The position numbers and the translations under genes were made by a program. Positions 1-20,137 of a DNA stretch of 64,000 nt are shown in pieces. Origin of the DNA: an uncultured Alphaproteobacteria bacterium (GTDB lineage: Bacteria > Pseudomonadota > Alphaproteobacteria > Rhizobiales > Hyphomicrobiaceae). Below the pieces are notes generated by a model. It ran no database searches and had not been told where the DNA came from. It saw only the letters and a program-made list of their open reading frames with translations. The stretch's first letter is position 1; every line of letters starts with the position of its first letter. The DNA is taken from NCBI GenBank assembly GCA_963825625.1, contig CAWGUF010000019.1, positions 135,534 to 199,533 on the forward strand, in the 5' to 3' direction.

Positions 1-1369
1 GTCCGCATTCGTGCAGATAAGCGATTGATCCCTGCGGCAGCAATCGCGAGATGTCGCGGTCGGAGGCAGCCATGCTCATGCAGCCCCACCAGGCGCTGCC
101 GGCCACCACGGGAATTTCCAGCGCCGGCAACTCCCGCTCCAGGCGGCTCCTGACGCTGGCGCGCACTGCGGCGCCGTCTGCCAGCGGATTGCGCAACTGG
201 TCGATGCGGTTGATGAAGACGATGATGCGGTCTTTGTGCAGACCGTTGAGAATGCGCAGCAGCGAGATCTCGTTGGCCGATAGCGGCTGCAAGGCTGAGA
301 TTACGAATACATAGATGTCGGAGCCTTCCAGGCTGCGGCGTGTGATCTCGTCACGCACGAGGAACGGGTCGTTGGTTCCCGGGGTGTCGATCAGCGTGAC
401 GGGAAAGGCGAACGGGCCGCCGGCCATATACAGATCGGCGGATCGTGTTATATCGGAAAACTGCTGTGTCTGGCCTTGCTGGCCCGGGCCCAGATAGGTT
501 CCGGCACTGACATAGCGTTCGAGCAATTCAGGCGTGATCTGCTGGTAGCCGTGCGTCTGGCCCAGCAGGTTTTCCAGCTGGTCACCGAGACGATGCTCGA
601 CGCGCTGGCGCATCACCTCCACTTGCGCCCGCAGCAACTCCGGCTCGAAGCCGGGAACCAGCCGTTCGGTCAGCTCGCGCAGCCGGCCACCACCTTCCGC
701 AAGCCGTTGCCACTCCTCCCGGCTGAAAAGCTGGAATACGGCCTTGGTGTCCGGCAACGGCCGGTCGTCGCGGCAATGCAGCGAGGTGACGACTGCGGTC
801 CACGGATTGATATCCGTCGGCAGCAGATCCGGCTGCAGCATCAGAGCGTTTATGAAGGAGCTCTTGCCGGCCTTGATCTGTCCGATCACGGCTATGCGGC
901 ATGTCTGCTCGGCGAGGACGCGGCGCGCTTCGGTGACGATCGGCAGCGCATGTGGGTCCAGATGCGGCTCCAGTCGGCCTGCGACGTCGATGAGGCGGCT
1001 GCGGACCTGCTCCAATCGGGTGCCGATGCGCGTTGGTGGCCGCGCTGGCTGCCGCGGCTTGGAGCTATCGTCGACAGCTACGCCGTCGCCACCCTGCGCA
1101 GATGGGTCGGCCACTGTCGGCGGCAACTTGCTCTCATACCCCATACGCTCGTCCGCTACCCTGCATCCCATCCGCCAGCACAACCCTGCTGGATCGGTCC
1201 CCTGCATCGCGAAGCCGTCGCCGTTCCCCGGTTCCCACTGGTCCGGAGAGACCAGGAAGACCAACCGGGGTTGTGCATTCTGGCCCTGCCGCAACGGAAA
1301 TCCCGTCCGATGAACCAGCTTCGAGCCGGCATGCCATTGCCAGAGCCTGATGCGTTCCCCGCCCTGCAC
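1..1369 (-). CDS. dynamin-family GTPase; the C-terminal part runs off the left window edge
   Basis: The minus-strand frame is absent from the ORF track because it has no stop inside the window. My own translation gives a G1 P-loop IAVIGQIKAGKSSFINAL (~nt 870), a G3 motif LIDTPG (~nt 370) and DIYVFVISALQPLSANEISLL, typical of bacterial dynamin-like proteins. There is an in-frame stop at 1370-1372; candidate starts are GTG 1369, ATG ~1210 and ATG 1144. The listed + ORF 476..1378 is the antisense artefact. Confidence 0.65.
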   Translation of the reverse strand, partial: MQGGERIRLWQWHAGSKLVHRTGFPLRQGQNAQPRLVFLVSPDQWEPGNGDGFAMQGTDPAGLCWRMGCRVADERMGYESKLPPTVADPSAQGGDGVAVDDSSKPRQPARPPTRIGTRLEQVRSRLIDVAGRLEPHLDPHALPIVTEARRVLAEQTCRIAVIGQIKAGKSSFINALMLQPDLLPTDINPWTAVVTSLHCRDDRPLPDTKAVFQLFSREEWQRLAEGGGRLRELTERLVPGFEPELLRAQVEVMRQRVEHRLGDQLENLLGQTHGYQQITPELLERYVSAGTYLGPGQQGQTQQFSDITRSADLYMAGGPFAFPVTLIDTPGTNDPFLVRDEITRRSLEGSDIYVFVISALQPLSANEISLLRILNGLHKDRIIVFINRIDQLRNPLADGAAVRASVRSRLERELPALEIPVVAGSAWWGCMSMAASDRDISRLLPQGSIAYLHECG

Positions 1370-1560
1370 CTACTGTAATAATCGTGGCGAATATGTGAGC
1401 AAGTAATTTTCGTGCTTGACAGTGGTAATTTAGCTAAGCGCGCTAGAGGTACACGCTGGAGCGGTCGCCGCGGCTTGCTGGGGCTCGTTGGCGCCGGTAT
1501 AACGCCGCCGGCAGCCGGCTTTCAGGCATCATCATCAACACCGGAGGGAAGGACCCCGCG

Positions 1561-1983
1561 ATGGCCATCGAGCAAACGTTCTCAATTATCAAGCCGGATG
1601 CGACGGCCCGCAATCTGACTGGGCAGATCAATGCCGTGATCGAGAAGGCTGGACTTCGGGTCGTGGCGCAGAAGCGGGTCCGGTGGACACGTGCTCAGGC
1701 GGCTAAATTCTACGAAGAGCATAAGGCGCGCCCGTTCTATGGCGAATTGTGCGAGTTCATGACCTCGGGCCCGATTGTTCTCCAGGTGTTGGAGGGCGAG
1801 GACGCGATTGCCAAGTACCGACAGGTGATGGGTGCCACCGATCCGGCCAAGGCGGACGAGGGCACGATCCGCAAGCTGTTCGCCAAGAGCGTGGGTGAGA
1901 ACTCGGTGCATGGGTCCGACAGCCCAGCTTCGGCCGAGCGTGAAATTGCGCTCAACTTCCGGCTCGATGAGATCGTGGGCTGA
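1561..1983 (+). CDS. ndk: nucleoside diphosphate kinase
   Basis: 140-aa ORF. It starts [13 protein letters not shown] and contains the NSVHGSDS active-site histidine motif. Full-length similarity to Ndk. Confidence 0.95.
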
Positions 1984-2107
1984 GATGAAATGAGAGAGAA
2001 TGGAGGCAGCCGCCATTTTCGGCATTGCAAGGGCCAGCAACCTTGCACTGCATGAAAAGTGGTGGCTGTCCCCATTTTTCCGTTCCGATTTCTGGTTGGA
2101 GCATTCC

Positions 2108-2611
2108 ATGATCACACCCGACTATGTGCGCACCATGGCCCGCTACAATCGGTGGCAGAACAACTCGCTCTACCGCGAGGCCGACAAGTTGACCGAGGCG
2201 CAGCGCAGCGAGAACCGCGGCGCATTCTTCGGCTCGGTGCACGCCACCTTGAGCCACATCCTGTTCGGCGATCAGATCTGGATGCACCGGCTCACCGGCT
2301 CTCCAGCGCCAACTGCCACCACGATCAAAGACAGCGTGGCGATGGTGCAGGACTGGTCCGACCTCAAAACGCAGCGCACGGCGTTTGACGGGCTGGTGAT
2401 GGCCTGGGCCGATAAGCTCGAGCCCGCCGTGCTGGAAGGCGAGCTGACATGGATGTCGGCGGCGCTGAATTGGCAGTTCACGCAGCCGCGGTGGATGCTC
2501 GTCACCCACATGTTCAATCACGCCACGCACCACCGGGGGCAGGTGCACTGCATGCTGACCGGCTTCGGGCTGAAGCCTGACGACACCGACATCCCCTTTA
2601 TGCCGAATTAA
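2108..2611 (+). CDS. DinB/DinB_2-family (YfiT-like) putative metal-dependent hydrolase
   Basis: ORF 2000..2611, with the internal Met at 2108 (MITPDYVRTMARYNRWQNNSLY...HATHHRGQ) giving the usual ~170 aa. The upstream 2000-2107 carries palindromic elements rather than coding-looking sequence. Confidence 0.75.
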   Translation: MITPDYVRTMARYNRWQNNSLYREADKLTEAQRSENRGAFFGSVHATLSHILFGDQIWMHRLTGSPAPTATTIKDSVAMVQDWSDLKTQRTAFDGLVMAWADKLEPAVLEGELTWMSAALNWQFTQPRWMLVTHMFNHATHHRGQVHCMLTGFGLKPDDTDIPFMPN

Positions 2612-2671
2612 GCGGCGCGGATTGGGCGACCGCCATGTTCGCGCGCTAACTGGATCGATGCGCGCGTGGGC

Positions 2672-3238
2672 TCAGGCGCCCTCGGCCAGCACCTTCCTCA
2701 GTGCCGCCCGCCGCTCGGGCCGGTACATCTCGTCGTAGGAGCGCGGGCCCAGCGGACCCTGCTCGATCTGCAGCGTTACGAACGCGGGACCGTCGCTCTG
2801 CAGCAGCCGCGGCAGCTTCTGCTCGAACTCCACGAGGTCGGCGATGACGTCGACTTTGTCGATGCCGGCGGCGCGCGCCATGCCGGCGAAATCGACGTTG
2901 TCGCGGTTGACGATCGGGTGGCCGCCATTGGCCTCGTAGGACCCGTTCTGCAATACGAAGTGCAGGAAGTTTTCGGTGCGGCTTGCCGCCAGCGTGACCA
3001 GTGTGCCCAGGTTCATCAGCAGGCTGCCGTCACCATCGAGCACAACCACCTTGCGCTCCGGCCGTGCCAACGCCAGTCCAAGCCCGTGACTGGAGCACAA
3101 GCCCATTGCCCCATGACTGAAATAATTGAGCGGGCGGTCATTGACCCGTATCCAGTCGCTGGCTGTGGAATAGGACGAGACCACGATCTCGTTGGTGATA
3201 TGGCGCTTGAGGATCTCGAGCAGGGCGACGCGGTTCAT
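2672..3238 (-). CDS. TPP-dependent decarboxylase, beta (C-terminal TPP-binding) subunit; sulfopyruvate/phosphonopyruvate decarboxylase ComE-like
   Basis: ORF 2672..3601 is trimmed to Met122 (MNRVALLEILKRH...). It carries the VVLDGDGSLLMNLG TPP-binding motif. A GAGGGAG RBS lies 8 nt upstream of ATG 3238. Confidence 0.75.
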   Translation of the reverse strand: MNRVALLEILKRHITNEIVVSSYSTASDWIRVNDRPLNYFSHGAMGLCSSHGLGLALARPERKVVVLDGDGSLLMNLGTLVTLAASRTENFLHFVLQNGSYEANGGHPIVNRDNVDFAGMARAAGIDKVDVIADLVEFEQKLPRLLQSDGPAFVTLQIEQGPLGPRSYDEMYRPERRAALRKVLAEGA

Positions 3239-3255
3239 TATGATAGCTCCCTCGT

Positions 3256-3789
3256 TCAGACTGGCCGGCGGCCGATGGTCAATGCCACCGGACGCGAGGT
3301 CGCATAGGCCTGCTCGATGGCCGGTGCGATCTTGGGGATGTCTGCATCGGTATCGATGTAATGATGGGGAATGCCCAGCACGTCCAGCATGGGCTCGGTG
3401 ATTCGTACTCCGAACCTGTTGGATTGCGTCGGTGCCACATCGGGCTCTTTCGACAAGAGGCCGATCATCATCACCATCGGCATCTCGTGCTCGCACGCCA
3501 CCGCCCGGATCGCGTTCATGGCGTAGAGAAAACCGGTGTATTGAATGAGGATCAGGGCGCGCTTGTTGCCATAGGTGAGGCCCGCCGCAATGCCCAGGCA
3601 CTCGTCCTCCTTGCAGACGCGGACGAGCTTGAGGTCCGTGTCCTCTGCCACACGCTTGAGCACACCCTGGCTGGTATGCAGGTCCGGCACTGACAGCACG
3701 TATTCCACGCCGGCCGCCTTCACCGCCTTTATGATCTCCTCGCCACTGAGCGTTCGGGCGTCGGACGCCGGCCTGGTTGCCGCTTTCAT
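3256..3789 (-). CDS. TPP-dependent decarboxylase, alpha (N-terminal pyrimidine-binding) subunit; ComD-like
   Basis: 177-aa ORF with the TPP-enzyme N-terminal domain pattern (GVEYVLSVPDLHTSQGV...GLLS). Its stop is 17 nt upstream of the beta-subunit start, which suggests a two-gene operon. Confidence 0.75.
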   Translation of the reverse strand: MKAATRPASDARTLSGEEIIKAVKAAGVEYVLSVPDLHTSQGVLKRVAEDTDLKLVRVCKEDECLGIAAGLTYGNKRALILIQYTGFLYAMNAIRAVACEHEMPMVMMIGLLSKEPDVAPTQSNRFGVRITEPMLDVLGIPHHYIDTDADIPKIAPAIEQAYATSRPVALTIGRRPV

Positions 3790-3852
3790 TTCGCTTCCTC
3801 GCCTGATAGCGCTTTGGTATGCGTTGTTTGCTACTGTTTTTCCGGCCGGTTC

Positions 3853-4305
3853 TCAGGCCAATCCCAGCCGGCTGGCGGCCAGTTGAATGAGCCGGGCCGC
3901 ACCGTCGGTGAGCCGATAACTACCAACGTCCGACAGCGGAACGAAGCGCGCATCCGAGATGTCGGTCTCGGCCTTGGGCTCGCCGGCCACCCACGTGCCG
4001 TAGAACACCGAAAGGCTGTAATGGCCTTTCACTCTGCCGGCCTCGTCGCGCTGAACGATGTCGTGCAGGTCGAGCAGACCCTCTATGTTGACCTGCAGCC
4101 TCGTTTCCTCGGCGATCTCGCGCAACGCAGCCTGGCTTGCCGTCTCACCCATCTTCACTTTGCCGCCGGGAAAGCTCCAGTACCCAACCTTCGGGCCATA
4201 GGCGCGCTCGGCGAGCAGCACCGTTGGGCCGCGAAAAATGGCGGCACTGGCGCAGGGGCGCGGCCACGGCCAGTGCTCGGGCGCAGGTCTTGGATCTGGT
4301 GTCAT
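3853..4305 (-). CDS. NUDIX hydrolase
   Basis: Nudix box GYWSFPGGKVKMGETASQAALREIAEETRL. ORF 3853..4560 is trimmed to Met86 (MTPDPRP...); ATG at 4305 checked in the sequence. Confidence 0.8.
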   Translation of the reverse strand: MTPDPRPAPEHWPWPRPCASAAIFRGPTVLLAERAYGPKVGYWSFPGGKVKMGETASQAALREIAEETRLQVNIEGLLDLHDIVQRDEAGRVKGHYSLSVFYGTWVAGEPKAETDISDARFVPLSDVGSYRLTDGAARLIQLAASRLGLA

Positions 4306-4472
4306 GCTGGTCGTCGCCTCATGGTCAGCGGTACGGGCAACAGCGTATGCGATGGCCGGCCTGCCTGTCCATGCGTGTCCGACATGGCGTGTCCTAGATG
4401 GCGGTAGCGCCGGCCGCTGCCACCCGCTACCATGATCCGGACGATAAAACCCCGTTTCAGCCGGAGGCCCGC

Positions 4473-5183
4473 ATGGCACGTGATTTCGAGGATCATTGCT
4501 GGAAGGACGTGATTCCGCAGCAGATGCTGGACATTTACCAGCATTACGCCCGCGAGACATACGTCGGCGATGCGCCGGCGCTGCTCGCCATCGACCTTTA
4601 TGAACTCGTGTATCAGGGCGGCGCCAGGCCAGTACAGGAGGTGACGAAGGAGTTTCCGTCCGCTTGCGGCGAATACGCCTACAACGCCATCCCGCCGACG
4701 AAACAGGTGTTCGCCGCCGCCCGCGCTGCCGGCTTGCCGGTCATCTATACAACTTCAGACGCCCGGCCAGACAGCCGCCCGCGCCGCGTATCGGCCACCA
4801 ACCGCAAGGGTGTGCCGCTCGACCCGTCGGCCTATGAGATCCGCGCCGACTTCAAGCCGGAGCCCGGCGACACCGTCATCACCAAGCAGCGCGCAAGTGC
4901 CTTCTTCGGCACACCGCTGGTCGCCCACTTGAACATGCTGGGGGTGCGCTCGCTGATCATCGTCGGCGACAGCACGTCGGGCTGCGTGCGCGCCAGCGCT
5001 GTCGATGCCTACAGCCACGGCTACCACGTCACGCTGGTGGAGGAATGCTGCTTCGACCGTTGCGAGCTGTCGCACAAGGTCAACCTGTTCGACATGCATC
5101 ACAAGTACTGCGATGTCATGCACGTCGACGAGGTTCTGGCGGCGCTGACAAAAATGAAGCCCGCGCGCGCAGCGGCGGAGTGA
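4473..5183 (+). CDS. isochorismatase-family cysteine hydrolase
   Basis: IIVGDSTSGCVRASAVDAYSHGY is typical of the isochorismatase/CSHase fold. ORF 4398..5183 is trimmed to Met26. Confidence 0.8.
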   Translation: MARDFEDHCWKDVIPQQMLDIYQHYARETYVGDAPALLAIDLYELVYQGGARPVQEVTKEFPSACGEYAYNAIPPTKQVFAAARAAGLPVIYTTSDARPDSRPRRVSATNRKGVPLDPSAYEIRADFKPEPGDTVITKQRASAFFGTPLVAHLNMLGVRSLIIVGDSTSGCVRASAVDAYSHGYHVTLVEECCFDRCELSHKVNLFDMHHKYCDVMHVDEVLAALTKMKPARAAAE

Positions 5184-5209
5184 GCCGATCAGCTGCGCGC
5201 CTTCAGTTT

Positions 5210-5274
5210 GTCGCTGGCGACTCCCCTTCGGGGAGCCGGCCGCCAGCGACGTGCGATACGCGCCGTTATTTTTG
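5210..5274 (+). terminator. probable intrinsic terminator after the isochorismatase gene
   Basis: Inverted repeat GTCGCTGGCG-ACTCCCC-TTCG-GGGAG-CCGGC-CGCCAGCGAC at 5210-5250, then a T-run TTATTTTT at ~5267-5274. Confidence 0.4.
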
Positions 5275-5547
5275 CGCTGCGACTGCGGCGCTTACGCAAT
5301 GCCTCGGATCGGCCATGACGGTCGATCGGGCATCGAGCAGGCGTCAAGCTGGCCGTCATGGCCGCGCCGGACAGAGGCGCAGCCGAAGTCCGGGACCAGG
5401 CGGCCATCCATGGCGGCGATCGGCATGCGTTGCGGTCGATCCACTTTGAGGCGCTTTCATGCCCCTGACGGCGAATCAATCTGTACAGCTCTTGACGATC
5501 AGCGCATAGTTAACACGCGGTGGAGTACATGCGCGGAGGGCGGCGTG

Positions 5548-6837
5548 ATGGAATGCGGCTCGGGTGAGTGGGCTTGTGTGGTTCTAAGCTTACTAGAAAA
5601 GCATGGGGTGGAGGCATCTCACGCGCTTGGTTGGCTGCCTAGCGTGGAGCTTCACGTTAGAGAAAACATACAGGCATTGATTGGCCTGCTTGGTCTATCA
5701 TTTGGTATCTATAAATGGTGGTATTTTCGTGATCGCGCCCTTCATCAGCGGCTTAAGGCCTATCTCAGCGAGCAGGATGCGCGCCTGAAAGAGGCGAGGT
5801 CGTATACGCTTGAGGCGATTAACCGGCCAGGAGCGAAGCGTCGGTTTGCCGAACCGCTTTTCGCCGTGGAGCCATTGCGCAAAGTGCTTCATAAGAAGGG
5901 TTGGAATTCCATTTTGAGCGCGAATACGCTTGAAACAGGTGCCGAACGCCTGATTGAGCAGGCTCTGCAAGGTGTCGAGGACCGGCTTGCAACGTCTCAG
6001 AACCAACTTGCGAGTTTTCGAGTGCAGCAAGCGAGTGCGCATTTACTCAAGGGCGCGATTGCGGCCGCGCGAGCTTCAAACATGCGAGATAGCGCACAAG
6101 CGTTCGCGTTGGATGATCGGGCCTTGAATGCATTTCGGACAGTGCAACTTGTTCCGGGATATGAACGTGATGTCGATGCGAAAGAGTTCGAGGCTCACCA
6201 GTTGCGAAAGCTGGGGCATCTTGCATTGGCGAAAGCTGCTTATTTGAAAACAGAAGAGTTTGCGGGTTTTTTGACCGATCAGCGTTCACGGGACTTGACA
6301 ACTGCTCGTTGCCGGCGCTGGCGCGCTAGTATTGAGCAGCAAGAAGCTATAGAGAGGTATGCTCGAGGCCAGCAAATTGGACGTGGGAGTCATAGAGCTC
6401 AGCAGTTGCTTAGAGGCGACGAAGCTGGTCAGGTTTTAGGTGCACTAATGTTGCGCAAACCGTATGAGCCGTTTGGCGGTTGGGATGCAATCGACCAAGG
6501 AGACTACCACTATTTTGCAGCGTTTGTGAGCGATAATTTGGGCTTTAATCTCCAAAGAGACGGAAGTCTCAATGACGCCGTTACTGAATACAAGCGAGTA
6601 TTGGAGAATACGCCGAGAAAATTATTCGGGTCCGAAACCAACAGGCGTCTGCGGGCTGCAGCTCATGCAGGTCTGGATCGCGCGCGAGCGGCTCAGAATA
6701 AAAGGCAGTTTGACGCCGCTTGGCTTCTGGCGCCATCACAGCCAGCGCAGGCCCATGCCCACGACGTAGGCCAGTCCAGCGGCGAGCAGGCCATTGACGA
6801 AGCTGCGGAGCAGGATGGCGTTGACGGCGCCCGATAG
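5548..6837 (+). CDS. hypothetical membrane-anchored alpha-helical protein encoded on a low-GC insertion; C-terminal end uncertain
   Basis: ATG 5548 sits 7 nt after a GGAGGG RBS. The product has one predicted TM helix (IQALIGLLGLSFGIYKWWYF) followed by ~370 aa of helical, Ala/Arg/Gln/Glu-rich sequence with no motif I recognise. The DNA at 5470-6725 is visibly AT-richer than its flanks. The frame has no stop until 6837, where it runs antisense through the neighbouring gene. Confidence 0.5.
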   Translation: MECGSGEWACVVLSLLEKHGVEASHALGWLPSVELHVRENIQALIGLLGLSFGIYKWWYFRDRALHQRLKAYLSEQDARLKEARSYTLEAINRPGAKRRFAEPLFAVEPLRKVLHKKGWNSILSANTLETGAERLIEQALQGVEDRLATSQNQLASFRVQQASAHLLKGAIAAARASNMRDSAQAFALDDRALNAFRTVQLVPGYERDVDAKEFEAHQLRKLGHLALAKAAYLKTEEFAGFLTDQRSRDLTTARCRRWRASIEQQEAIERYARGQQIGRGSHRAQQLLRGDEAGQVLGALMLRKPYEPFGGWDAIDQGDYHYFAAFVSDNLGFNLQRDGSLNDAVTEYKRVLENTPRKLFGSETNRRLRAAAHAGLDRARAAQNKRQFDAAWLLAPSQPAQAHAHDVGQSSGEQAIDEAAEQDGVDGAR

Positions 6838-6984
6838 TCCGAGATCGCGGCCGCGCTCGTAAAGCGGCGCGTGCTGGGCATACGAGATCGAGGCGAGCGC
6901 TATAGCGGCGGCGGCGACGGCCCACGGCGGCACGCCCGCAAAGCCTGCGAGAGAGGCGCCAAGTACTGCCAGATAGGCGAGCAT
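6736..6984 (-). CDS. small hydrophobic (2-3 TM) membrane protein
   Basis: 82-aa ORF with native GC content and hydrophobic segments (LAYLAVLGASLAGFAGV..., LLAAGLAYVVGMGL). Confidence 0.45.
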   Translation of the reverse strand: MLAYLAVLGASLAGFAGVPPWAVAAAAIALASISYAQHAPLYERGRDLGLSGAVNAILLRSFVNGLLAAGLAYVVGMGLRWL

Positions 6985-7090
6985 GGTTGTGTCTCCGAGA
7001 CCGCCACGCCCGCACCCCCTGCCAAGCGGCCGCGCAAGTTATGCCCGGATTCGGTTGCGGATGGGAGCGCGATCCCCAGGAATTACCAGC

Positions 7091-7115
7091 CCAGCGACCG
7101 CGCCGCGCTGGTTTT
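7091..7115 (+). terminator. hairpin plus T-tract (CCAGCG-N9-CGCTGG-TTTT)
   Basis: Perfect 6-bp inverted repeat followed by TTTT. It lies immediately upstream of the repeat array. Confidence 0.3.
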
Positions 7116-7120
7116 GGCAC

Positions 7121-7243
7121 GCTCCGGGCAACAGCCCGACGCGGTTTTTTGTTTCGCTCCGGGCAACAGCCCGACGCGTCTTTGTTCCGCTCCGGGCAAC
7201 AGCCCGACGCTGTCTTAGCGCGCTCCGGGCAACAGCCCGACGC
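7121..7243. repeat. four tandem direct repeats of the 22-bp unit GCTCCGGGCAACAGCCCGACGC, with 11-13 bp T-rich spacers (period 33-35 bp)
   Basis: Copies at 7121-7142, 7156-7177, 7189-7210 and 7222-7243, identical over 22 bp. Each can form a CGGGC/GCCCG hairpin with loop AACA. The array is intergenic, ~70-190 bp upstream of the acyltransferase gene. Confidence 0.85.
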
Positions 7244-7310
7244 TTGGTGGGCATGATTGCTGCAGCGGGGGGTGAGAGAAACCCAGGCTCCTCCAGTTGA
7301 CGTGGCAACA

Positions 7311-8456
7311 ATGTTCAGAATCGGACCATTCCGCAGCTCAAATGCCCCGGCGCAGCGTCGAGATGTTTCAATTCGCGACACCGATACCGGGCGGCGCAGG
7401 CGTGAAGGCCGGCTCGACTGGTTCGATTATGCCAAGGGTATCTGCATCATCCTGGTGGTGATGCTGCACTCCACGATCGGCACCGGCGAGGCCTACCGGG
7501 ACTGGGGGCTGGCGCCGCAGGGCTTCATGCATACGGTGGTGGCCTATGCCAAGCCGTTCCGCATGCCGGATTTCTTCATGCTGTCTGGTCTGTTTCTGTC
7601 CTATGCGATCGGCCGTGGCTGGCTGCACTATCTCGACAAGAAGCTGGTGCATTTCGCCTATTTCTATCTGCTGTGGACGACGATCCAGGTGGTGGTGAGA
7701 ACCGGCGCGACGAGCGGGCTGGAACCTGCCGGACTGTCGGCGCAACTGGTGGATGCGCTGGTGAACCCCTATCCGACGCTGTGGTTCATCTACGTGCTGC
7801 CGCTATTCTTCATCCTGACCAAGGCGATGCACGGCACAGTGCCGGGCTGGCTGATGCTGGCCGGCGCCGCGCTGCTGCAGATCCTGCCGGTGCATACCGG
7901 GTGGAAGGCGATCGACAGCATGGGCGCCCACTATTACGTCTACTTCCTGGCCGGCTATCTGCTCGCGCCGCGGATCTTCGCGTTGGCGCGCTGGGCGGAG
8001 GAGAACAGCGGCCGGGCTCTGGCGATGATCGCCGGCTGGGCCGTGCTGAACGGCATTCTGGTCTTCACTCCTAGCCCCATCGAGGGCTGGACGTCGGTGG
8101 CGGCGCTGCCGGTCGTTTCGCTGGCGCTGGGCGGTCTGGGTGCGGTGGCGATCATCATGATCGCCAGCGTGATGGCCAAGGCCGACGTGCTGGGCATCAT
8201 CCGATATTGCGGCAAACATTCGCTGGTACTCTACGTCTCGTTCACGATTCCGATGGCAACGACCCGGGTGCTGCTGCTGAAGACGGGTCTTGTCGCGGAT
8301 ACGGGGCTGGCTTCCGTGATCGTGTGGCTGGCGGCGCTGGCGGGGCCGCTGGTGCTGTACCTGATGGTGCGGTCGACGCCGCTGCGCTTCCTCTATGAGC
8401 GCCCGGACTGGCTGGTGCTGCCGTATCGCAGGTCGGCCACGGCGCAGGCCACCTGA
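7311..8456 (+). CDS. acyltransferase-3 family integral membrane protein (OafA/ExoZ-like)
   Basis: [20 protein letters not shown], the N-terminal motif of acyltransferase family 3, with about 10 predicted TM segments. ORF 7257..8456; start chosen at Met19. Confidence 0.8.
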
Positions 8457-8565
8457 GGACCGTCGGCAGCGCCGGGGCCCCAGCCGCAAAGACGCACCGC
8501 GGCGAAAACGTGTTGTGAACGCCGCGGGCCGCCTTGAGCGGTGCGGGTTGTCGCGCCATATTCGG

Positions 8566-11344
8566 GCCATGGCACGTGCTCCGAAATCGTCCGCCGCAGG
8601 TAAAAAGCCGCGTCCCTCGCGTGGCAAGTCCGGGAAGCCGCTGGCGCCGCCCGCGGAGACGGCCGCTGGCACGCCCGGTTTCGGCGAGGCGCCGCAGTCA
8701 TATTTTGTGCCCGGCGCCCCCCCCGCGGGCGATCCCAGCGCATCCGGCCGGCGCGCCGCAGGCGTGTCGGATGCGCCAAGCAAGACTCTCCCGGCCTTGC
8801 GCAACCAGGCGCTGACGCCGTCGTCGGATACATTCAGTGTCACGGCGGGGCTGCACGCGCTGCTCGCCCGGCCCGAGGAGCGGTCCACAGCCGCGCGCGA
8901 TCTGCTGGCGCGGCAGCCGATGATGGCCAGTCATCCGATCGTGGCCGGAACGGCGATGGAGTTCGTGCCGCACAGGCCAACCCGGCCCGAGAAATCGGAA
9001 GGCGGCATCCGGTTCGAGTTCGTCTCGGAGTTCGAGCCAAAGGGCGACCAGCCGCATGCGATCGCCGAGCTGGTGGCAGGTGTGCAGGCGCAGGAGCGGA
9101 CGCAGGTGCTGCTCGGCGTCACCGGCTCCGGCAAGACGTTCACGATGGCCAAGGTGATCGAGGCGACGCAGCGACCGGCGCTGATTCTGGCGCCGAACAA
9201 GACGCTGGCAGCGCAGCTCTACGGCGAGTTCAAGAGCTTCTTTCCGAACAATGCGGTCGAGTATTTCGTCTCCTACTACGACTACTACCAGCCCGAGGCC
9301 TACGTGCCGCGCACCGACACCTACATCGAGAAGGAATCCTCGATCAACGAGCAGATCGACCGTATGCGCCATGCCGCGACGCGTGCGCTGCTGGAGCGTG
9401 ACGACGTCATCATCGTGGCGTCGGTGTCGTGCATCTACGGTATCGGCTCGGTGGAGACCTATACGGCGATGACGTTCACGGTGCAGGTCGGCGACCAGAT
9501 ATCGCAACGTCAGCTGCTGGCCGATCTGGTGGCGCTGCACTATCGCCGCAACGACGGCAATTTCCATCGCGGCACGTTCCGCGTGCGCGGCGATACGATC
9601 GAATTGTACCCGGCCCACTTGGAGGATCGCGCCTGGCGCTTCTCGATGTTCGGGGACGAGATCGAGTCCATCACCGAATTCGATCCGCTGACGGGGCAGA
9701 AGAGCGACGAGCTGAAGCTGGTGAAGGTCTATTCCAACTCGCACTACGTGACGCCGAAGCCGACGCTGCAGCAGGCCATCCGACAGATCAAGGAAGAGCT
9801 GAAGCAGCGCCTCGACGAGCTTTACGCGAACGGCAAGCTCTTGGAGGCGCAGCGGCTGGAGCAGCGCACGATGTTCGACATGGAGATGATGGAGGCGACG
9901 GGCTCGTGCGCGGGGATCGAGAACTACTCGCGCTATCTCACCGGCCGCAAACCCGGCGAGCCGCCGCCGACGTTGTTCGAGTATCTACCCGACAACGCGA
10001 TCGTGTTCGCGGACGAAAGCCACGTCACCGTGCCGCAAATCGGCGGCATGTTCCGCGGCGACTTCCGGCGCAAGGCGACGCTGGCGGAGTACGGTTTCCG
10101 GCTACCGTCGTGCATGGACAATCGCCCGCTGCGGTTCGAGGAGTGGGATGCGATGCGGCCGCAGTCGGTTGCCGTATCGGCAACGCCGGGCGGCTGGGAG
10201 CTGGAGCAGACGGGGGGCGTGTTCGCCGAGCAGGTGATCCGGCCGACCGGGTTGATCGATCCGGAGGTGATCATCCGGCCGGCGACGAGCCAGGTCGACG
10301 ATCTGCTGGACGAGGTGCGCAAGGTTGCGAAGAAGGGCTACCGCACGCTGGTCACGACGCTGACCAAGCGCATGGCGGAAGACCTCACCGAGTACATGCA
10401 CGAGAACGGCGTACGGGTGCGCTACATGCACTCGGACGTGGAGACGCTGGAGCGGATCGAGATCATCCGCGATCTGCGACTGGGAGCATTCGATGTGCTG
10501 ATCGGGATCAATCTGCTGCGCGAGGGGCTCGACATTCCCGAGTGCGCGTCTGGTGGCTATACTCGATGCGGATAAGGAAGGTTTCCTGCGCTCGGAGACG
10601 TCGCTGGTGCAGACCATCGGGCGGGCGGCGCGCAATGTCGACGGTCGCGTCATTCTTTATGCTGACGGCATGACCGGGTCGATGGAGCGGGCGATAGCCG
10701 AGACCGACCGGCGGCGCGAAAAGCAGGTGGCCTGGAACGAGGCGAACGGTATCACCCCACAGAGCGTGCGCCGTTCGATCGGCGACATCATGGATTCGAT
10801 GTACGAGCGCGACCATGTGATCGTTGATGCCGGTGTCGCGGCCGAGGCCGGTACGGCGCTGGTCGGCCACAACCTGGGGGCGGTGATCGAGGATCTCGAG
10901 AAGAAGATGCGCGAGGCTGCGGCCGATCTGGAGTTCGAGACCGCCGCCCGGTTGCGCGACGAGGTCAAGCGCTTGCGCGAGACCGAGCTGGCGGTTGCCG
11001 ACGATCCGCTGGCGCGGGAGCTTGCCGTCGCCCCGCCGCGCGCTGCGACCTCCCGGCCTCCGAGCCGGGATCATGCGGGCGCGCGCAGCGCGCCGGTCAG
11101 GACTGCGGCAGGCTCAGGGATGGGCTCTGGGAAGGGCGCGCGCGAGGCGCAAGCAAAGAGGCCGCACAAACCGGGGCTCGATGAGATGACGGTCGGGCGG
11201 ACGGAGGTGCCGGCAGGCCGCGAACTGTCGACGCGGCCGCTGCCCAAACCGACGAAGACGGTCGATGTCGAGGACGGCATGGCGACCGTGCAGAAGGGCC
11301 CCCGTCGCGGCCGGGCAAAGAAGACGGGGCGGCCGGGGGCGTAA
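8566..11344 (+). pseudogene. uvrB: excinuclease ABC subunit B, with the reading frame interrupted once (apparent +1 insertion near 10541-10552)
   Basis: ORF 8395..10575 carries the N-terminal Ala/Pro/Lys-rich extension and UvrB helicase motifs ([24 protein letters not shown]) up to [15 protein letters not shown] 10553..11344 continues exactly with the canonical [16 protein letters not shown]...TIGRAARN and the UVR domain ([17 protein letters not shown]). The two pieces are in different frames. Confidence 0.85.
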
Positions 11345-11900
11345 AAGGAAATCGTCACCGGTTGTGGGACCGTTCAGTGTAATGAGATAACATTTCAGAT
11401 CGATCAGCTTCGGCTTTCACGGAATTTGATGGCCTGCTGCCAAGAGTCTGACTGCGAAGTGACCTGCATTTCGAGCACGGTCGAGTCATCGAGTGTCAAG
11501 GTCGGAGTCTGGCGTGTTATCAGTGCCCACGTCGTTCAATAGGCCACGCAATGCGCGTTTCGGGAGGCGAAGAGGTAATTTCGCATGCTGATTATGCTCA
11601 GGTCGAACCCGTAGACTTCGTGCGGATTGTGCAGCAATGGTCGTAATGATACGCACACGGATTGCGAGGCAGTCCGTTCGGCCAGATCAATCGGCCAGCC
11701 ATTTGCGGATGGCTGTGCGCGAATAGGCACAGATTTCTACAATCTGGCGATCGAGGGTAGGCTCTTTGCAGCATAGAGATTGACGGGGTTTGCCGGACTT
11801 ATTACTGATAATTGTTCAGATGTGATCGGCCCGAGTGAAAGGAGGCGGATCGCAGCTGGGTTGTCCATCTATCGTTCCGTATACAAAGGGAGGGGCGAAC

Positions 11901-12332
11901 GTGGGAAGGTGCGCGGAACGCGTAATCGAGACGTACTGCGATGCATACTTCCGGCGCGATTTCGATACGTGCATCGATTTATTCGAGGACGATGTTTTTT
12001 CCGGCATTCATTTGGACAGGAACCTGGTGCCGTTTGCCGGGCTGGGATTTGGCAAGAACGCGGTGCGGCGCCGGCTGGAGATTCTGGACGAGCTGTTTGT
12101 CGACGACCACTATCGCTTGATGCGGGTTTGTCCGGAGGGGCAGAACAGGGCCTGGTCGCGGATCGAGTTCCGCTCCTACCATCGCGCGACCGGCGAGGAA
12201 ATCGACGGGCATGTCCTGATCGACTGGCGCTTCCGCGACGGCCGCGTGATGCGCGCAGTGCACTATCCCGACAGGTCGCTGGTGGAGGCCTTTTTCCGGA
12301 TGGTTTCGGCTGAGGCCCTGCAAACCGAATAA
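11901..12332 (+). CDS. SnoaL/NTF2-like (ketosteroid-isomerase fold) protein
   Basis: ORF 11835..12332. GTG 11901 is preferred because AAAGGGAGGGG precedes it and the annotated ATG lies inside that RBS-like run. ~144 aa, typical size for the fold. Confidence 0.55.
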   Translation: MGRCAERVIETYCDAYFRRDFDTCIDLFEDDVFSGIHLDRNLVPFAGLGFGKNAVRRRLEILDELFVDDHYRLMRVCPEGQNRAWSRIEFRSYHRATGEEIDGHVLIDWRFRDGRVMRAVHYPDRSLVEAFFRMVSAEALQTE

Positions 12333-12433
12333 GCGGGCCTTGCTCATTCCCGATCAAGGGGGTCATGATATCTGCCTGAACTCCAGAGGCGGGCCCAATG
12401 GGCCTGCTTTCGTTTGCGCGGATTGGATCGAGC

Positions 12434-14779
12434 ATGGCGGATGGTGAAATGGCCCGGTGGCTGGGGCGGCGGGTGGTGCGGGTCGAGGATGCACGCTTGC
12501 TGGGCGGGGAGGGCCGCTTCGTCGATGACATCGAGTTGCCCGGCTTGCTGCACGCAGCGTTTCTGAGAAGTCCGGTCGCGCATGGACTGGTGCGCAGCAT
12601 CGACACCTCGGCGGCGGCTGCGATGCCCGGTGTCCGCGCCGTGCTGACGTACCAGGATCTCCGGCGGTTTCATGTCTTCGACCGTATCCCTCAGGCGCTG
12701 CCGGCCGGGGCACTGCGGTTCGATGTCGACCCCTATTGCCTGGTCGACAAGGAGGCGTGCTACGTCGGCGAGCCGATTGCCGTCATCGTGGCCGAGTCGC
12801 GAGCGGTAGCGGAAGATGCTGTTCGCGCCATCGAGCTCGATATCGAGCCGCTAGCGGCGGTCGTGGATCCGGTCGCGGGCTTGCAGGCCGGGGCTCCGAA
12901 AGCGCGTCTCGACGTCCCGGATAATCACGTTGCCCACAGCCGTATCGACTACGGTGACGTGGATGGGGGCTTTCAGCGTGCTGCGCATGTGCTCAGCGCG
13001 CGCTTCAGGCTCGACAAGGGGGGGATGCATGCGATCGAGACGCGCGGGATCGTGGCGCGGTTCGAGCCGCAAGAGGACCTGCTGACGGTCTGGTGCAACA
13101 CCCAGATGCCGCATCGGGCCAAGCAGATCCTGGTGGCCGCCCTGGGGCTCACAGAGCCTCAGGTGCGCGTGGCGGCACCCGATGTCGGTGGTGGCTTCGG
13201 TCCAAAGGCGACATTCCATCCCGAGGAGCTGGCGGTTCCGACGGCGGCCATGATGCTGGGGGCGCCGGTCAAATGGGTGGAGGACAGGGCCGAGAACTTC
13301 GTGGCCTGCTCGGGCGAGCGGTTGCAGGACTGGGATATGGAGATGGCGGTGGACGCCGATGGGCGGCTGCTTGCTGTCAGGGGGCGGCTTTGTCACGACC
13401 ACGGCGCGGCGACGCCATACGGCGTGGCGCTGGCCTACAACGCGGCGACCAATGTCGTGGGGCCGTACCGGTTGCCGGCGTACCGCATGGACATCGACTT
13501 GTGTCTGACGAACAAGGTTCCGGCGGTGCCCACGCGCGGCGCCGGGCGCCCGCAGGGCATGTTCGTGATGGAGCGTCTGCTCGACCGGGCGGCTGCAGCG
13601 GTGGGGGTCAGCCGCGAGGAGGTCAGGCGGCGCAACTTCATTCAGCCTGAGGAGATGCCGTTCACGATTCCCATTCTGCAGCGGGATGGCAGCGCCATGA
13701 CATACGACTCCGGCGACTATCCGCTGTGTCAGTCCAAGGCGCTGGCCGCGATCGCGTGGGATGGTTTCGAAGCCCGCAGGGCAGAGGCGCGGTCGCAGGG
13801 GCGGCTGCTCGGCATCGGGCTTGCCAATTATGTCGAGGCCACCGGACGCGGGCCGTTCGAAAGCGCCAGGCTCAGCATCGGCGCATCCGGGAAGATTTCG
13901 ATCGCCACCGGCGCCAGTGCTCAAGGCCAAGGCGTCGCGACAATGCTGGCACAGATCGCGGCTGAGGCGCTCGACGTGGACCCGGCCACGATTCACGTGG
14001 TGTCCGGCGACACGGTGGGCACGCCGATGGGTTTTGGCGCGTTCGCAAGCCGCCAGGCGGTGACCGCCGGCAACGCCATCATGGTTGCGGCGAGGCAGGT
14101 GGCGGACAAGGCGAAGCAGGCGGCATCGGCCATGCTCGAGGCGTCCGCCGACGACCTGGTGATCGTGAACGGGCGCGTGGAGGTGAAGGGGGTGCCGGGG
14201 CGGGGCAAGGCCTTGGCAGAGATCGCGCGGGCGATCAACGGCGTTCCAGGTTTTGCGCTGCCGGGCGGTGTTTCGCCGGGTCTTGCCGCCGCAGTCGATT
14301 TCGAGGTGTCGGCGCTGGCCTACTGCAATGGCTGTCACGTGGCAGAGGCGGAGGTCGATGTCGAGACCGGGCAGGTGCGGCTGACCCGCTACATCGTGGT
14401 GCACGACTGCGGGCGCATCATCAATCCGCTGATGGTGGAAGGCCAGGTGCTGGGGGCTGTGGTGCACGGCATTGGCGCCACGCTCTACGAGTGGATGCGG
14501 TATTCAGACGAGGGCCAGCCGCTATCGGTCAGCTATGGCGAATATCTGCTGCCGACCACCGATGTGGTACCGCGGATCGAGATGGTCCACGTCGAGACGC
14601 CTTCACCGACCAATCCGCTGGGGGTGAAGGGGGCGGCGGAGAGCGGCACGATCGGGGCGCCGGCGGTGATCGTGTCGGCGGTAGAAGATGCGTTGCGCGA
14701 GTATGGCGTGCGGGTGCGAGAACTGCCGCTGACGCCGGACCGGCTGCGCGCCTTGATTGCGGCTGCAGACGGACCCTGA
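12434..14779 (+). CDS. molybdopterin-binding large subunit of the xanthine dehydrogenase / CO dehydrogenase (CoxL) / aldehyde oxidoreductase family
   Basis: N-terminal WLGRRVVRVEDARLLGGEGRFVDD and a ~780 aa length with conserved XDH-family blocks. ORF 12398..14779; start chosen at Met13. Confidence 0.85.
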   Translation: MADGEMARWLGRRVVRVEDARLLGGEGRFVDDIELPGLLHAAFLRSPVAHGLVRSIDTSAAAAMPGVRAVLTYQDLRRFHVFDRIPQALPAGALRFDVDPYCLVDKEACYVGEPIAVIVAESRAVAEDAVRAIELDIEPLAAVVDPVAGLQAGAPKARLDVPDNHVAHSRIDYGDVDGGFQRAAHVLSARFRLDKGGMHAIETRGIVARFEPQEDLLTVWCNTQMPHRAKQILVAALGLTEPQVRVAAPDVGGGFGPKATFHPEELAVPTAAMMLGAPVKWVEDRAENFVACSGERLQDWDMEMAVDADGRLLAVRGRLCHDHGAATPYGVALAYNAATNVVGPYRLPAYRMDIDLCLTNKVPAVPTRGAGRPQGMFVMERLLDRAAAAVGVSREEVRRRNFIQPEEMPFTIPILQRDGSAMTYDSGDYPLCQSKALAAIAWDGFEARRAEARSQGRLLGIGLANYVEATGRGPFESARLSIGASGKISIATGASAQGQGVATMLAQIAAEALDVDPATIHVVSGDTVGTPMGFGAFASRQAVTAGNAIMVAARQVADKAKQAASAMLEASADDLVIVNGRVEVKGVPGRGKALAEIARAINGVPGFALPGGVSPGLAAAVDFEVSALAYCNGCHVAEAEVDVETGQVRLTRYIVVHDCGRIINPLMVEGQVLGAVVHGIGATLYEWMRYSDEGQPLSVSYGEYLLPTTDVVPRIEMVHVETPSPTNPLGVKGAAESGTIGAPAVIVSAVEDALREYGVRVRELPLTPDRLRALIAAADGP

Positions 14780-14797
14780 GCGCGGTCAACCGATGGG

Positions 14798-15103
14798 ATG
14801 GACATCATGGCGAAGGGCTATTGGATTGCAGAGATCACGATCCGCGAGCAGGACGGGTATGAGGCCTACCAGGCCGCCGTCCGGGTGGCGCTCGACATCT
14901 ATGGCGGCAGATATCTTGTCCGCGGCGGCAGGTCCGAGGCCAGGGAGGGCGAGCCGCGTCCGCGTGCGGTGGTGATCGAATTCAAGGACTATTCAACCGC
15001 GGTTGCCTGCTACGAGAGCCCGGAATTCACCAAGGCCAAAGGTATGCGGCAGCGCCTGGCCGACACCGACTTCCTGATCGTCGAAGGCTGGGACGAGGCG
15101 TGA
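14798..15103 (+). CDS. DUF1330-family small protein
   Basis: 101-aa ORF (MAKGYWIAEITIREQDGYEAYQ...). It begins 19 nt after the XDH-family stop. Confidence 0.65.
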   Translation: MDIMAKGYWIAEITIREQDGYEAYQAAVRVALDIYGGRYLVRGGRSEAREGEPRPRAVVIEFKDYSTAVACYESPEFTKAKGMRQRLADTDFLIVEGWDEA

Positions 15104-15230
15104 GCGCGACAGTGGCGCCGGCTCGCGGCAGGTGCCAATATGTGGCATGGATCGGGTGGGACGATGCTGCTACCAACCGAACTTTCGCATAGAGACGTGC
15201 AAGACGAGCTGATCGATTGCGAGCAAGCCC

Positions 15231-15578
15231 ATGAAATCCTGTACCCAATGCGGTCGCTGCTGCCAGAACCCTCACTTCATGGAGAGCCTCGGCATTTCCG
15301 AGGAGGACGAGGCGAGGTGGCGTGAACAGGGGCGAGGCGACATATTGGCGAAGGTGAACAACCAGATGGGCTGGCTGGAGCCTGGTCCGTGTCCGTTTGT
15401 CCACGAGATGGGAGATGGCCGCTACGCGTGTGCCATTTACGAGACGCGGCCCGGAACGTGCCGCGATTATCCGATTGCGGTGATCCACATGGAATTTGTC
15501 GATTGCGAGATGCTGGATCCGGGCGATACGGATGCCGATGTCGCCCGCTTCATGGGGCGGGCCGTGGCGCAACCGTGA
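15231..15578 (+). CDS. YkgJ-family Cys-cluster (putative Fe-S/Zn) protein
   Basis: CTQCGRCC ... CPF ... C motif arrangement of the UPF0153/YkgJ family. Confidence 0.7.
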   Translation: MKSCTQCGRCCQNPHFMESLGISEEDEARWREQGRGDILAKVNNQMGWLEPGPCPFVHEMGDGRYACAIYETRPGTCRDYPIAVIHMEFVDCEMLDPGDTDADVARFMGRAVAQP

Positions 15579-15717
15579 CGGAGAAAGCAGCTCGAGCCGC
15601 GCAGCGAAGTAAAATCGCGTTTCACCGTGCGGCGTGATAACCGCCTCAGGCGGCTTGTGTTGCGGCGGGGCTGGGCCGATACTGGGCCGTTTCCGCCGAC
15701 CCCGCGAGGCCGCCCGC

Positions 15718-16995: not shown

Positions 16996-17003
16996 CAGGA
17001 AAT

Positions 17004-17029
17004 GGCTGGCGGGCTTGGCTGGCGGGCTT
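17004..17029. repeat. perfect tandem duplication of the 13-bp GGCTGGCGGGCTT
   Basis: Two adjacent identical copies immediately after the MFS stop codon. Confidence 0.6.
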
Positions 17030-17125
17030 GACGTCGGCATCACCGTCATTTGCTGCAGCACTTGTCAGTGAGGCGACGGCGAGGCATCACGTGCGGCATG
17101 CATTCGGGTTTCGCTTGAGGATTAG

Positions 17126-18466: not shown

Positions 18467-18523
18467 CCGTCTGGGCGAACGGGGCCGCGGCCGCTGTGCC
18501 ACTAGAGCAGTTTTATCCGACCA

Positions 18524-19933: not shown

Positions 19934-20137
19934 CCGGTTGGCTGGGCGAGGGACCGGATCAGTGCCGAGCTGGTCACGGTGGCTGGAATGGCGGGGGGCG
20001 GGACTGCCAGGAGCATTGGCCGCACGGGCCTGATCAGGACAGGAAATTGACAGCACAGGCGAGAGCCCACTATGAGGTAACTCGTACGCGGGGCCTCCCG
20101 CGCGGCAACCATCCCGATAACCAAAATCAGCGGCGTC

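Follow-up and report, generated by a model that had tools for sequence, protein, structure and literature searches.

Within the 64,000-nucleotide stretch of contig CAWGUF010000019.1 analyzed here (the window), which comes from an uncultured Hyphomicrobiaceae bacterium, two genes meet tail to tail. The larger, on the plus strand at 5548-6837, encodes a 429-amino-acid (aa) protein with a predicted membrane anchor and a tetratricopeptide-repeat (TPR)-like domain. The smaller, on the minus strand at 6736-6984, encodes a predicted four-helix integral membrane protein of 82 aa with a conserved loop, LYxRGxxLGL. An earlier note on this DNA had described a single-gene insertion beside an unrelated native gene, but we find that the neighbor is a conserved partner. 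In 27 of the 28 loci found via the large protein, a homologous convergent open reading frame (ORF) abuts or overlaps the 3' end of the large gene; this partner is exactly 82 aa long in almost all loci and 36-65% identical to that of the window. The reverse look-up, starting from the small protein, gave a convergent, Pfam-less gene of ~400 aa at the same position in five of five loci, and the two of these genes that we checked are homologs of the large protein (E 1e-33 and 1e-57). When flanking ORFs were compared all-against-all, nothing else traveled with the pair. At every locus the two 3' ends either touch or run into each other, without space for a terminator, and a terminator consensus scan found no intrinsic terminator-like site between them. 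We conclude that the two genes make up a single chromosomal cassette, conserved and convergent, in Hyphomicrobiaceae-like Alphaproteobacteria.

The large gene is intact rather than truncated. Its ORF runs from an ATG at 5548 to a TAG at 6835-6837, and a ribosome-binding site read off the sequence, GGAGGG (5535-5540), lies 7 nucleotides (nt) ahead of the ATG; a G-rich block precedes the start in all homologous loci. The conserved N-terminus of the homologs, MxCGxxDxxC, backs the same start, so the start and good ribosome-binding site proposed from the sequence alone both stand. A search of 5.8 billion clustered proteins returned 21 homologs, and an exhaustive HMMER scan of 1.84 billion representatives recovered 281 representative clusters (73 below 1e-30), nearly all of 390-450 aa. 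The window protein aligns end to end with homologs of 390-430 aa, from MxCGxxDxxC to a C-terminal Y/FDxxWL motif that is aligned in all full-length homologs and closes the conserved core (residues 386-396, ...QFDAAWLLAP, 6703-6735). This core (FDAAWLLAP) ends at residue 396, base 6735, one base short of the small gene's stop codon, and the suggestion that the original 3' end was cut off at ~6725 is not supported.

Past the core, the last 102 nt of the large ORF (6736-6837) run antisense through the high-GC small gene, in register with its last 34 codons, and encode a non-conserved 33-aa tail (residues 397-429) and the stop codon; the antisense read-through until 6837 had been seen correctly in the earlier note. 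The tail would be incidental read-through, a by-product of the overlap, because it is predicted to be disordered (AlphaFold2 predicted local distance difference test, pLDDT, 51-54), because its length is set by antisense stops, and because synonymous divergence of the small gene is barely lower beneath it (pS ratio 0.93 vs 1.03 in tail-less loci). Among the homologs, the overlap of the ORF with the small gene takes values all along the range from -10 to +132 nt; in eight loci it is no more than a 4-nt overlap of the two stops. Where the tail is long, the frames are in-register antisense, and tail length equals the distance to the small gene's first TTA, CTA or TCA codon; these make up 3.3% of small-gene codons. 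We considered the tail as a selected, conserved domain and rejected this, as the apparent similarity among tails reflects an in-register antisense reading of the small protein's last helix, itself conserved.

The large protein is predicted to be a bitopic inner-membrane protein made up of an acidic N-terminal tail with a cysteine pair, a marginal anchor, a cytoplasmic coiled coil and a TPR domain. The AlphaFold2 model, built on a 78-sequence alignment (pLDDT 85.7, predicted template-modeling score 0.75), is all-helical outside the anchor segment, as had been expected for the remainder of the protein. It places helices at residues 7-27, 31-92 (a 62-residue helix that holds the anchor segment) and 126-178, followed by the repeat domain at 182-385. 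The N-terminal motif MxCGxxDxxC occupies residues 1-10 (5548-5577), and its Cys3 and Cys10 (5554-5577), a C-x6-C arrangement at the extreme N-terminus, are retained by 90% or more of the 78 relatives. A periplasmic location is predicted for the acidic N-tail (residues 1-40), in which case these two cysteines could form a disulfide or bind metal. Hydropathy, conservation and the model delimit the anchor (residues 41-60, 5668-5727; GLxGxSFGxWKWWY), which has a GxxGxxxG motif and an aromatic belt. Its hydrophobic segment spans residues 41-55, IQALIGLLGLSFGIY, and contains the GxxGxxxG motif; WKWWYFRDR comes next, the aromatic and basic belt WKWWYFRDRALHQRLK lying directly after the segment. An N-terminal transmembrane helix, as first proposed, is present, but its hydropathy is marginal (Kyte-Doolittle 1.77 over the 15 residues 41-55 and 1.03 over 19).

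Conservation in the large protein peaks at residues 41-80. Model helices and the conservation profile divide residues 61-181 (5728-6090) into a cytoplasmic juxtamembrane helix, an RPGxxRxFxxPLF loop and a long coiled-coil helix. Residues 182-385 (6091-6702) form the TPR-like helical-repeat domain, which holds an invariant EAHQLRKLG motif and is the fastest-diverging part of the protein. Because the N-tail is net-negative and the flank after the anchor is rich in K and R, the positive-inside rule predicts an N-out/C-in topology with the TPR domain in the cytoplasm. Structure comparison recognized a tandem-repeat solenoid, so that the domain qualifies as a TPR or helical repeat at the level of the fold. 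At the level of sequence, Pfam returned no TPR match for the window protein itself and TPR_2 matches in 6 of the 78 family members (best E 2e-5), and the family profile gave only weak TPR-like matches to PDB sequences (E 0.02-0.3). Pfam, NCBIfam, PHROG and PADLOC all lacked a match for the large protein, a further database search with the family profile found no annotated or more distant relatives, and we saw no enzyme, NTPase, nuclease or pore-like element. The large protein is best described as a putative membrane-anchored TPR scaffold that belongs to no described family; the earlier note had likewise recognized no family and singled the gene out as an undescribed candidate.

The small protein, for which we found 27 database homologs, is modeled by AlphaFold2 with helices at residues 2-16, 21-37, 39-47 and 51-81 (pLDDT 94.2). 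Neither Pfam, NCBIfam nor structure comparison gave it a family or fold match.

A consensus scan for sigma70 promoters and terminators found no promoter in the region, and terminators only at chance level; the promoter motifs described here were found via conservation across loci. Upstream of the large gene, a conserved block CTGTACA includes a -35-like hexamer, TGTACA (5482-5487, plus strand), and is followed after N16 by a -10-like block, GCATAGTTAAC (5504-5514, plus strand), which includes CATAGT (5505-5510) and a TTAAC half-site; the -35/-10 spacer is 17 nt. Ahead of the large gene, CT[GA]TACA or CTTGACA was found in 19 of 27 loci vs 0.5% of background windows, GCAT[AT]GT or GCATTAAC in 18 of 27 vs 2.2% of background, and the combined -35/-10 pattern in 13 of 27 vs 0.2%. 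Because of this conservation and spacing, both blocks are putative elements of the large gene's promoter. A CtrA-box-like TTAA-N7-TTAA overlaps the -10 block ~40-60 nt before the start in L011 and L027, the only loci with a full CtrA box; most others, including the window (TTAAC, 5510-5514), retain the TTAAC half-site only.

On the side of the small gene, a leader block, GTGCGGGCGTGGCGG (7001-7015, minus strand; family consensus GTGCGCGTCGCGGC), is conserved just upstream of the ribosome-binding site, and GTGC[GT][CG]GT is found ahead of the gene in 19 of 28 loci vs 2% of background. Farther upstream, 68 nt from the start, lies a conserved GANTC (CcrM methylation) site (7048-7052), with GANTC at -59 to -71 from the start codon in 24 of 28 loci. 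The GcrA consensus is YGAKTCK (PMC4647560), and a GcrA/CcrM-controlled promoter would carry such a site near -20 or at +2 to +30 of the transcription start site. YGAKTCK fits 15 of 25 of the small-gene GANTC sites, compared with 24% of background GANTC sites. About 100 nt upstream of the small gene, CTTGAA-N13-14-(T)CCCCAGNT is found in 11-13 of 28 loci vs 0.1-1.3% of background, and a strict sigma32-like pattern (CTTGAA, N13-16, CCCCATNT or CCTATAT) in 11 of 28 vs 0.1%. This CTTGAA element appears to resemble sigma32 promoters (the S. meliloti RpoH1 consensus is CTTGAA-N15-16-CCTATAT; PMC4843759). EcfG, LexA and sigma54 motifs were absent in the regulator-motif check. Transcripts from the two promoters should overlap, because no intrinsic terminator-like site lies between the genes. 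A minus-strand terminator-like hairpin with a T-run does occur at 5689-5670, inside the anchor-coding part, and if real would stop antisense transcripts that start at the promoter of the small gene; such sites are no more frequent in the region than expected by chance, so this one alone counts for nothing.

We also observed a tandem array (7113-7249), located between the start of the small gene and acyltransferase_3, of four head-to-tail units of 33-35 nt, with an identical 22-nt core, GCTCCGGGCAACAGCCCGACGC, and T-rich spacers. The core forms a small hairpin (CGGGC-AACA-GCCCG). The array recurs nowhere else in the 64 kb (0.01 chance matches expected) and is genome-specific, absent from all 29 related loci, so we rejected it as part of the module. 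It could be an element like a repetitive extragenic palindrome, a terminator array or an operator array.

The hosts that could be identified are all Alphaproteobacteria, mostly Hyphomicrobium and other Hyphomicrobiaceae, and include the cultured H. zavarzinii ATCC 27496, a Devosia metagenome-assembled genome (MAG) and a Parvularculaceae MAG. In eight loci of different genera (the window, L001, L004, L006, L011, L027, L030 and L032), uvrB is found on the side of the small gene. Other loci form a second group, next to DUF4175, lysA and argH, and the H. zavarzinii pair has pyrG, tpiA and rlmL nearby. Housekeeping families fill the Pfam top list of neighboring ORFs. Among the 150 nearest-neighbor ORFs of the 28 loci, no defense family occurred in more than three, and those that did came from syntenic triplets or generic domains; we likewise found no recurrent PADLOC or Pfam family beyond the syntenic triplets and no prominent integrase or transposase. 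The pair has no copy in 72,556 plasmids, 50,697 phage records or IMG/VR. At the window locus there is no tRNA within 1-20000, no flanking repeat and no mobility gene in the neighborhood scan, and Rfam found nothing real in 4800-7600. As an islet, then, the locus shows the compositional deviation and lacks the tRNA, integrase and flanking-repeat hallmarks. A hairpin at 5210-5250, followed by a T-run (z -2.4), does exist next to the AT-rich stretch, as the earlier note had stated, but it is the terminator-like structure of the isochorismatase gene, because it sits directly after that gene's stop codon.

Three loci depart from this general pattern. On a metagenomic contig, L029 (1-7405), the module stands beside ~16 small co-oriented ORFs, including DUF5681 and AAA_25/ATPase proteins, a prophage-like block that is the sole mobile-element-like neighborhood we saw. 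The L026 copy (6001-6952) has a frameshift in the large gene, and its small gene can hardly be recognized. In L028 (6001-6966) ~800 bp of the large gene are missing, in-frame stops are present, and the C-terminus of the small ORF is frameshifted. We also observed that uvrB of the window (8395-11344) is split into ORFs at 8395-10575 and 10553-11344, implying a frameshift near 10553-10575. It is likewise called as two genes in L001, and is intact, at 883-885 aa, in L030 and L032; the split in the window may be real or may stem from an error in sequencing or assembly.

The composition of the large gene is distinctive. The lowest-GC 1250-nt stretch of the window, at 5470-6725, has a GC content of 0.531 vs a window mean of 0.635 (z = -4.5 among 1250-nt windows, standard deviation 0.023), which bears out the AT-richness and, in the codons, the deviant style first noticed by eye. 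The deficit is almost wholly synonymous: the ORF core has a GC content of 0.64, 0.45 and 0.50 at first, second and third codon positions (GC1, GC2 and GC3), and GC3 is 0.81 in the isochorismatase gene, 0.83 in the acyltransferase gene, 0.87 in uvrB and 0.78 in the small gene, in all of which GC1 and GC2 are similar to those of the large gene. The small gene, overall, has an intermediate to native composition. It is at the large gene's putative promoter, with its -35-like hexamer, that the low-GC stretch starts, and the compositional boundary at the stop codon is sharp. GC skew is positive across the large gene and likewise in the neighboring genes. The large gene's GC lies below that of its own locus in 28 of 28 loci, by at least 4 points in 24 of them, and its GC3 is more than 0.1 under a crude coding background in 23 of 29 loci. 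Whatever the host, the large gene nearly always has low GC3. A second low-GC stretch (0.51-0.58) was seen in the window at 11400-12100, directly after uvrB; here 11345 to ~11780 is ORF-free, and a 165-aa ORF (11835-12332) follows.

Both genes are under purifying selection. The ratio of nonsynonymous to synonymous divergence (dN/dS, omega) is 0.07-0.17 for the large gene in close pairs and 0.05-0.2 for the small gene where dS can be estimated; it is low wherever measurable (0.04-0.26), with no sign of positive selection. The large gene is nonetheless the least alignable segment in every locus pair with shared flanks, and divergence of its TPR-coding part far outpaces that of the partner gene and of the flanks. 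Mean identity across loci is 38% in the TPR region vs 53% in the anchor region, and the identity of two large proteins is weakly correlated with that of their small partners (rho 0.25). For the window, the best non-self match of the large protein is at 50%, and the small protein has relatives at 68-73%.

Individual locus pairs suggest how this divergence arose. Between L002 and L009, flanking genes share 86-88% nt identity and the upstream intergenic region 81%, in a block that runs 48 nt into the large ORF, and the small genes are 86% identical in nt and 88% in aa sequence. Their large genes align only in patches, at 67-77%, and the encoded proteins are 46% identical (pS 0.78). In L018 and L022, by comparison, the large proteins are 86% identical despite a small-gene dS of 0.47, vs 0.49 for L002/L009. 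Because small-gene dS is equal and large-protein identity is 86% in one pair and 46% in the other, the L002/L009 difference reflects a discordant history rather than a uniform rate. The change can also fall within the gene: between L012 and L015, the 5' half has a dS of 0.5-0.6 and a dN of 0.04, and the TPR part has a dS of 1.94, a dN of 0.19 and an omega of 0.10. Since dN and dS are both raised while omega stays low, these comparisons point, in two lineage pairs or more, to a divergent homologous allele having replaced the gene or its TPR segment rather than to positive selection. In-place relaxation of synonymous constraint probably contributes as well, because vertical-looking pairs show a large-gene dS 2.5-3 times that of the small gene (1.15 vs 0.47 for L018/L022; 0.98 vs 0.34 for L012/L015).

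The best-surviving alternative takes this last component as the whole explanation. Low GC3 and high synonymous divergence would then have arisen in place, through relaxed selection or biased gene conversion in a weakly expressed gene, or through AT-biased mutation resulting from convergent transcription. Such an origin would fit a trait that is family-wide and independent of host GC, with normal GC1 and GC2 and only GC3 deviating, as well as the raised large-gene dS of vertical-looking pairs and the positive GC skew across the large gene. It leaves unexplained the 86% vs 46% large-protein identity at equal small-gene dS and the four-fold step in dN and dS inside one gene in L012/L015; the compositional boundary is sharp at the stop codon, and the neighboring genes share the positive skew. 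As a complete account we therefore consider it possible but somewhat doubtful.

The explanation that we favor is a resident convergent cassette, not a truncated single-gene insert, and this much we regard as established. A mechanism can be proposed on top of it, in which the inner membrane would be the place where both proteins work jointly. There, the large protein may dock on, or act beside, the small protein through its conserved anchor and juxtamembrane helix, and its variable TPR surface in the cytoplasm would bind a ligand or client, either a peptide or a protein. Such a design would amount to a TPR adaptor or sensor, tethered to the membrane and accompanied by a small integral protein. 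The two genes would probably be expressed in negative coupling, via convergent overlapping transcription, with the large gene driven by a sigma70-type promoter. In the promoter region of the small gene there would be a GANTC site of the CcrM/GcrA type at a fixed place, joined in roughly half of the loci (the window not among them) by a sigma32-like heat-shock promoter. Together the GANTC site and the sigma32-like promoter point to stress and/or cell-cycle control of the small gene. We consider this mechanistic package of joint action in the inner membrane, ligand binding, reciprocal expression and stress or cell-cycle control about equally likely to be right or wrong.

Several points weigh against parts of this picture. 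The marginal hydropathy of the anchor makes a monotopic or peripheral association possible. TPR similarity implies scaffolding or ligand binding and names no ligand. Convergent overlap alone does not prove antisense or interference control. The GANTC site of the window (GGATTCG) is one base off the GcrA consensus, and the sigma32-like motif was not detected in the window, L001, L004 or L011. The GC3 background and the neighboring ORFs were set by simple heuristics. Finally, the apparently degraded copies in L026 and L028 may mean that the pair is dispensable, or they may be sequencing or assembly errors of long-read MAGs.

The rapid divergence of the TPR domain also invites comparison with immune or self/non-self loci. 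The pair could be an undescribed two-component system of this kind, with a TPR sensor under frequency-dependent selection whose alleles recombine and a small membrane protein as the effector (for example, membrane-permeabilizing), much as in abortive-infection pairs that join a sensor to a membrane effector. Hypervariability is indeed concentrated in the TPR domain, allele or segment replacement is indicated, the AT-rich composition is typical of flexible-genome genes, and the invariant small membrane partner is strongly constrained. Genomic position differs among Hyphomicrobium species, copies look decayed in two MAGs, and one locus lies beside a prophage-like block. The pair nevertheless resembles none of 5027 PADLOC models (0 families at E up to 10), its neighbors are housekeeping genes rather than defense islands, and it was never found on phages, plasmids or viral contigs. 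Each retrieved locus holds one copy, omega is low throughout (0.04-0.26) with no sign of positive selection, and the promoter motifs are more suggestive of stress-dependent or cell-cycle-dependent expression than of constitutive surveillance. We consider an immune or self/non-self system unlikely. A broader form of the idea, in which a conserved small membrane protein is joined to a tethered TPR sensor whose domain is diversified by allele or segment replacement and kept AT-rich, as in such loci, with convergent overlapping transcription as the switch, seems to us similarly improbable.

The overlap of the two genes suggests another possibility, an antisense-controlled small membrane toxin resembling type I toxin-antitoxin systems. 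Here the 82-aa protein would be harmful, the read-through 3' end of the large mRNA would repress it, and the function of the large protein would be secondary. The obligatory 3'-3' overlap or abutment in all loci, with no terminator between, is suggestive of such an arrangement, as is a small hydrophobic protein with its own inducible-looking promoter. The small protein is, however, a confidently modeled four-helix bundle of strict length, unlike typical type I toxins, which have one helix and <60 aa. Strong purifying selection acts on the large gene too, over 396 codons, so it is not a mere antisense carrier. The ORF overlap in many loci is only 4 nt or none, and Rfam matched no antisense RNA in 4800-7600. 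Together these points leave the toxin reading very unlikely.

The interpretation offered in the earlier note, a recently acquired foreign gene that lost its 3' end at the right junction and encodes an abortive-infection or other defense effector or toxin, is hardly credible: the compositional break is sharp and real, no described family matches, and in some lineages the large gene has a history at odds with that of its flanks, but the protein is full length with an incidental tail, the supposedly native neighbor is its conserved partner, the uvrB-adjacent position recurs in eight loci of several genera, low GC3 is found in almost every host, tRNA, integrase and flanking repeats are absent, the fold is that of a TPR scaffold, and PADLOC, neighboring ORFs and the plasmid, phage and viral collections yielded nothing of that kind.

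If the resident-cassette reading holds, the pair represents an unannotated protein-pair family of ~280 clusters at 50% identity, specific to budding/prosthecate and related Alphaproteobacteria and covered by no Pfam, NCBIfam, PHROG or PADLOC model. It would combine three unusual features: strict tail-to-tail overlap, a lasting synonymous AT bias in GC-rich hosts, and a TPR domain that, under purifying selection, is swapped or diverges several-fold faster than its partner. The locus also carries a warning for island calling, as a sharp single-gene dip in GC can be a stable trait of a resident family and not a recent insertion. Similarly, GC-rich codon usage can, as a neutral side effect, extend an ORF far into the antisense strand of a neighbor. 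The pair is experimentally tractable, since it is present in the cultured H. zavarzinii ATCC 27496.

To our reading the gene pair is undescribed, with a design that would be that of a membrane-anchored TPR adaptor with a small partner and with unusual evolutionary behavior; we compared it with several known systems. Soluble TPR domains, such as those of sNASP, LGN/Pins, kinesin light chain and the RRNPP peptide sensors Rap, NprR and PlcR, are only 8-17% identical to the large protein and have no anchor, coiled coil or small partner; the large protein has no helix-turn-helix or phosphatase module. Two-gene defense pairs of the RexA/RexB type, with a sensor and a membrane effector, and TPR-sensor immune proteins such as Avs are alike in logic only, in that a variable sensor-like domain is joined to a conserved small membrane protein and the fast-evolving gene is AT-rich. 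The cassette, unlike these, has no PADLOC homology, no NTPase or nuclease module and no defense-island or mobile context. The type I toxin-antitoxin systems txpA/RatA and bsrG/SR4 are convergent units with overlapping 3' ends and one small hydrophobic product, as here. Type I toxins are usually shorter than 60 aa, with a single hydrophobic helix, and are paired with a non-coding antisense RNA, whereas both partners of the cassette are conserved protein-coding genes and the small protein has 82 aa and four helices.

In design, the closest known analogue appears to be LapB (YciM) with LapA (YciS) of Enterobacteria, an anchored cytoplasmic TPR adaptor and a small inner-membrane protein under heat-shock regulation. 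LapB ends in a rubredoxin-like zinc domain with paired CxxC motifs, and lapA lies upstream in the same orientation and is co-transcribed with it. The cassette differs from this system in several respects: neither of its proteins has a Pfam or NCBIfam match, the small protein has no LapA/DUF1049 match, and the window protein has no rubredoxin-type domain, its C-terminus being WLLAP plus a disordered tail and its only conserved cysteines C3 and C10. The two genes are convergent and overlapping in every locus rather than arranged as an operon, and the TPR part is hypervariable, which would be unexpected for an essential housekeeping regulator. What the cassette and LapB/LapA would share is a membrane anchor at the N-terminus (marginal by hydropathy here) with TPR repeats after it in the cytoplasm, a neighboring gene for a small integral membrane protein, and heat-shock-type promoter motifs, present here in about half of the loci.

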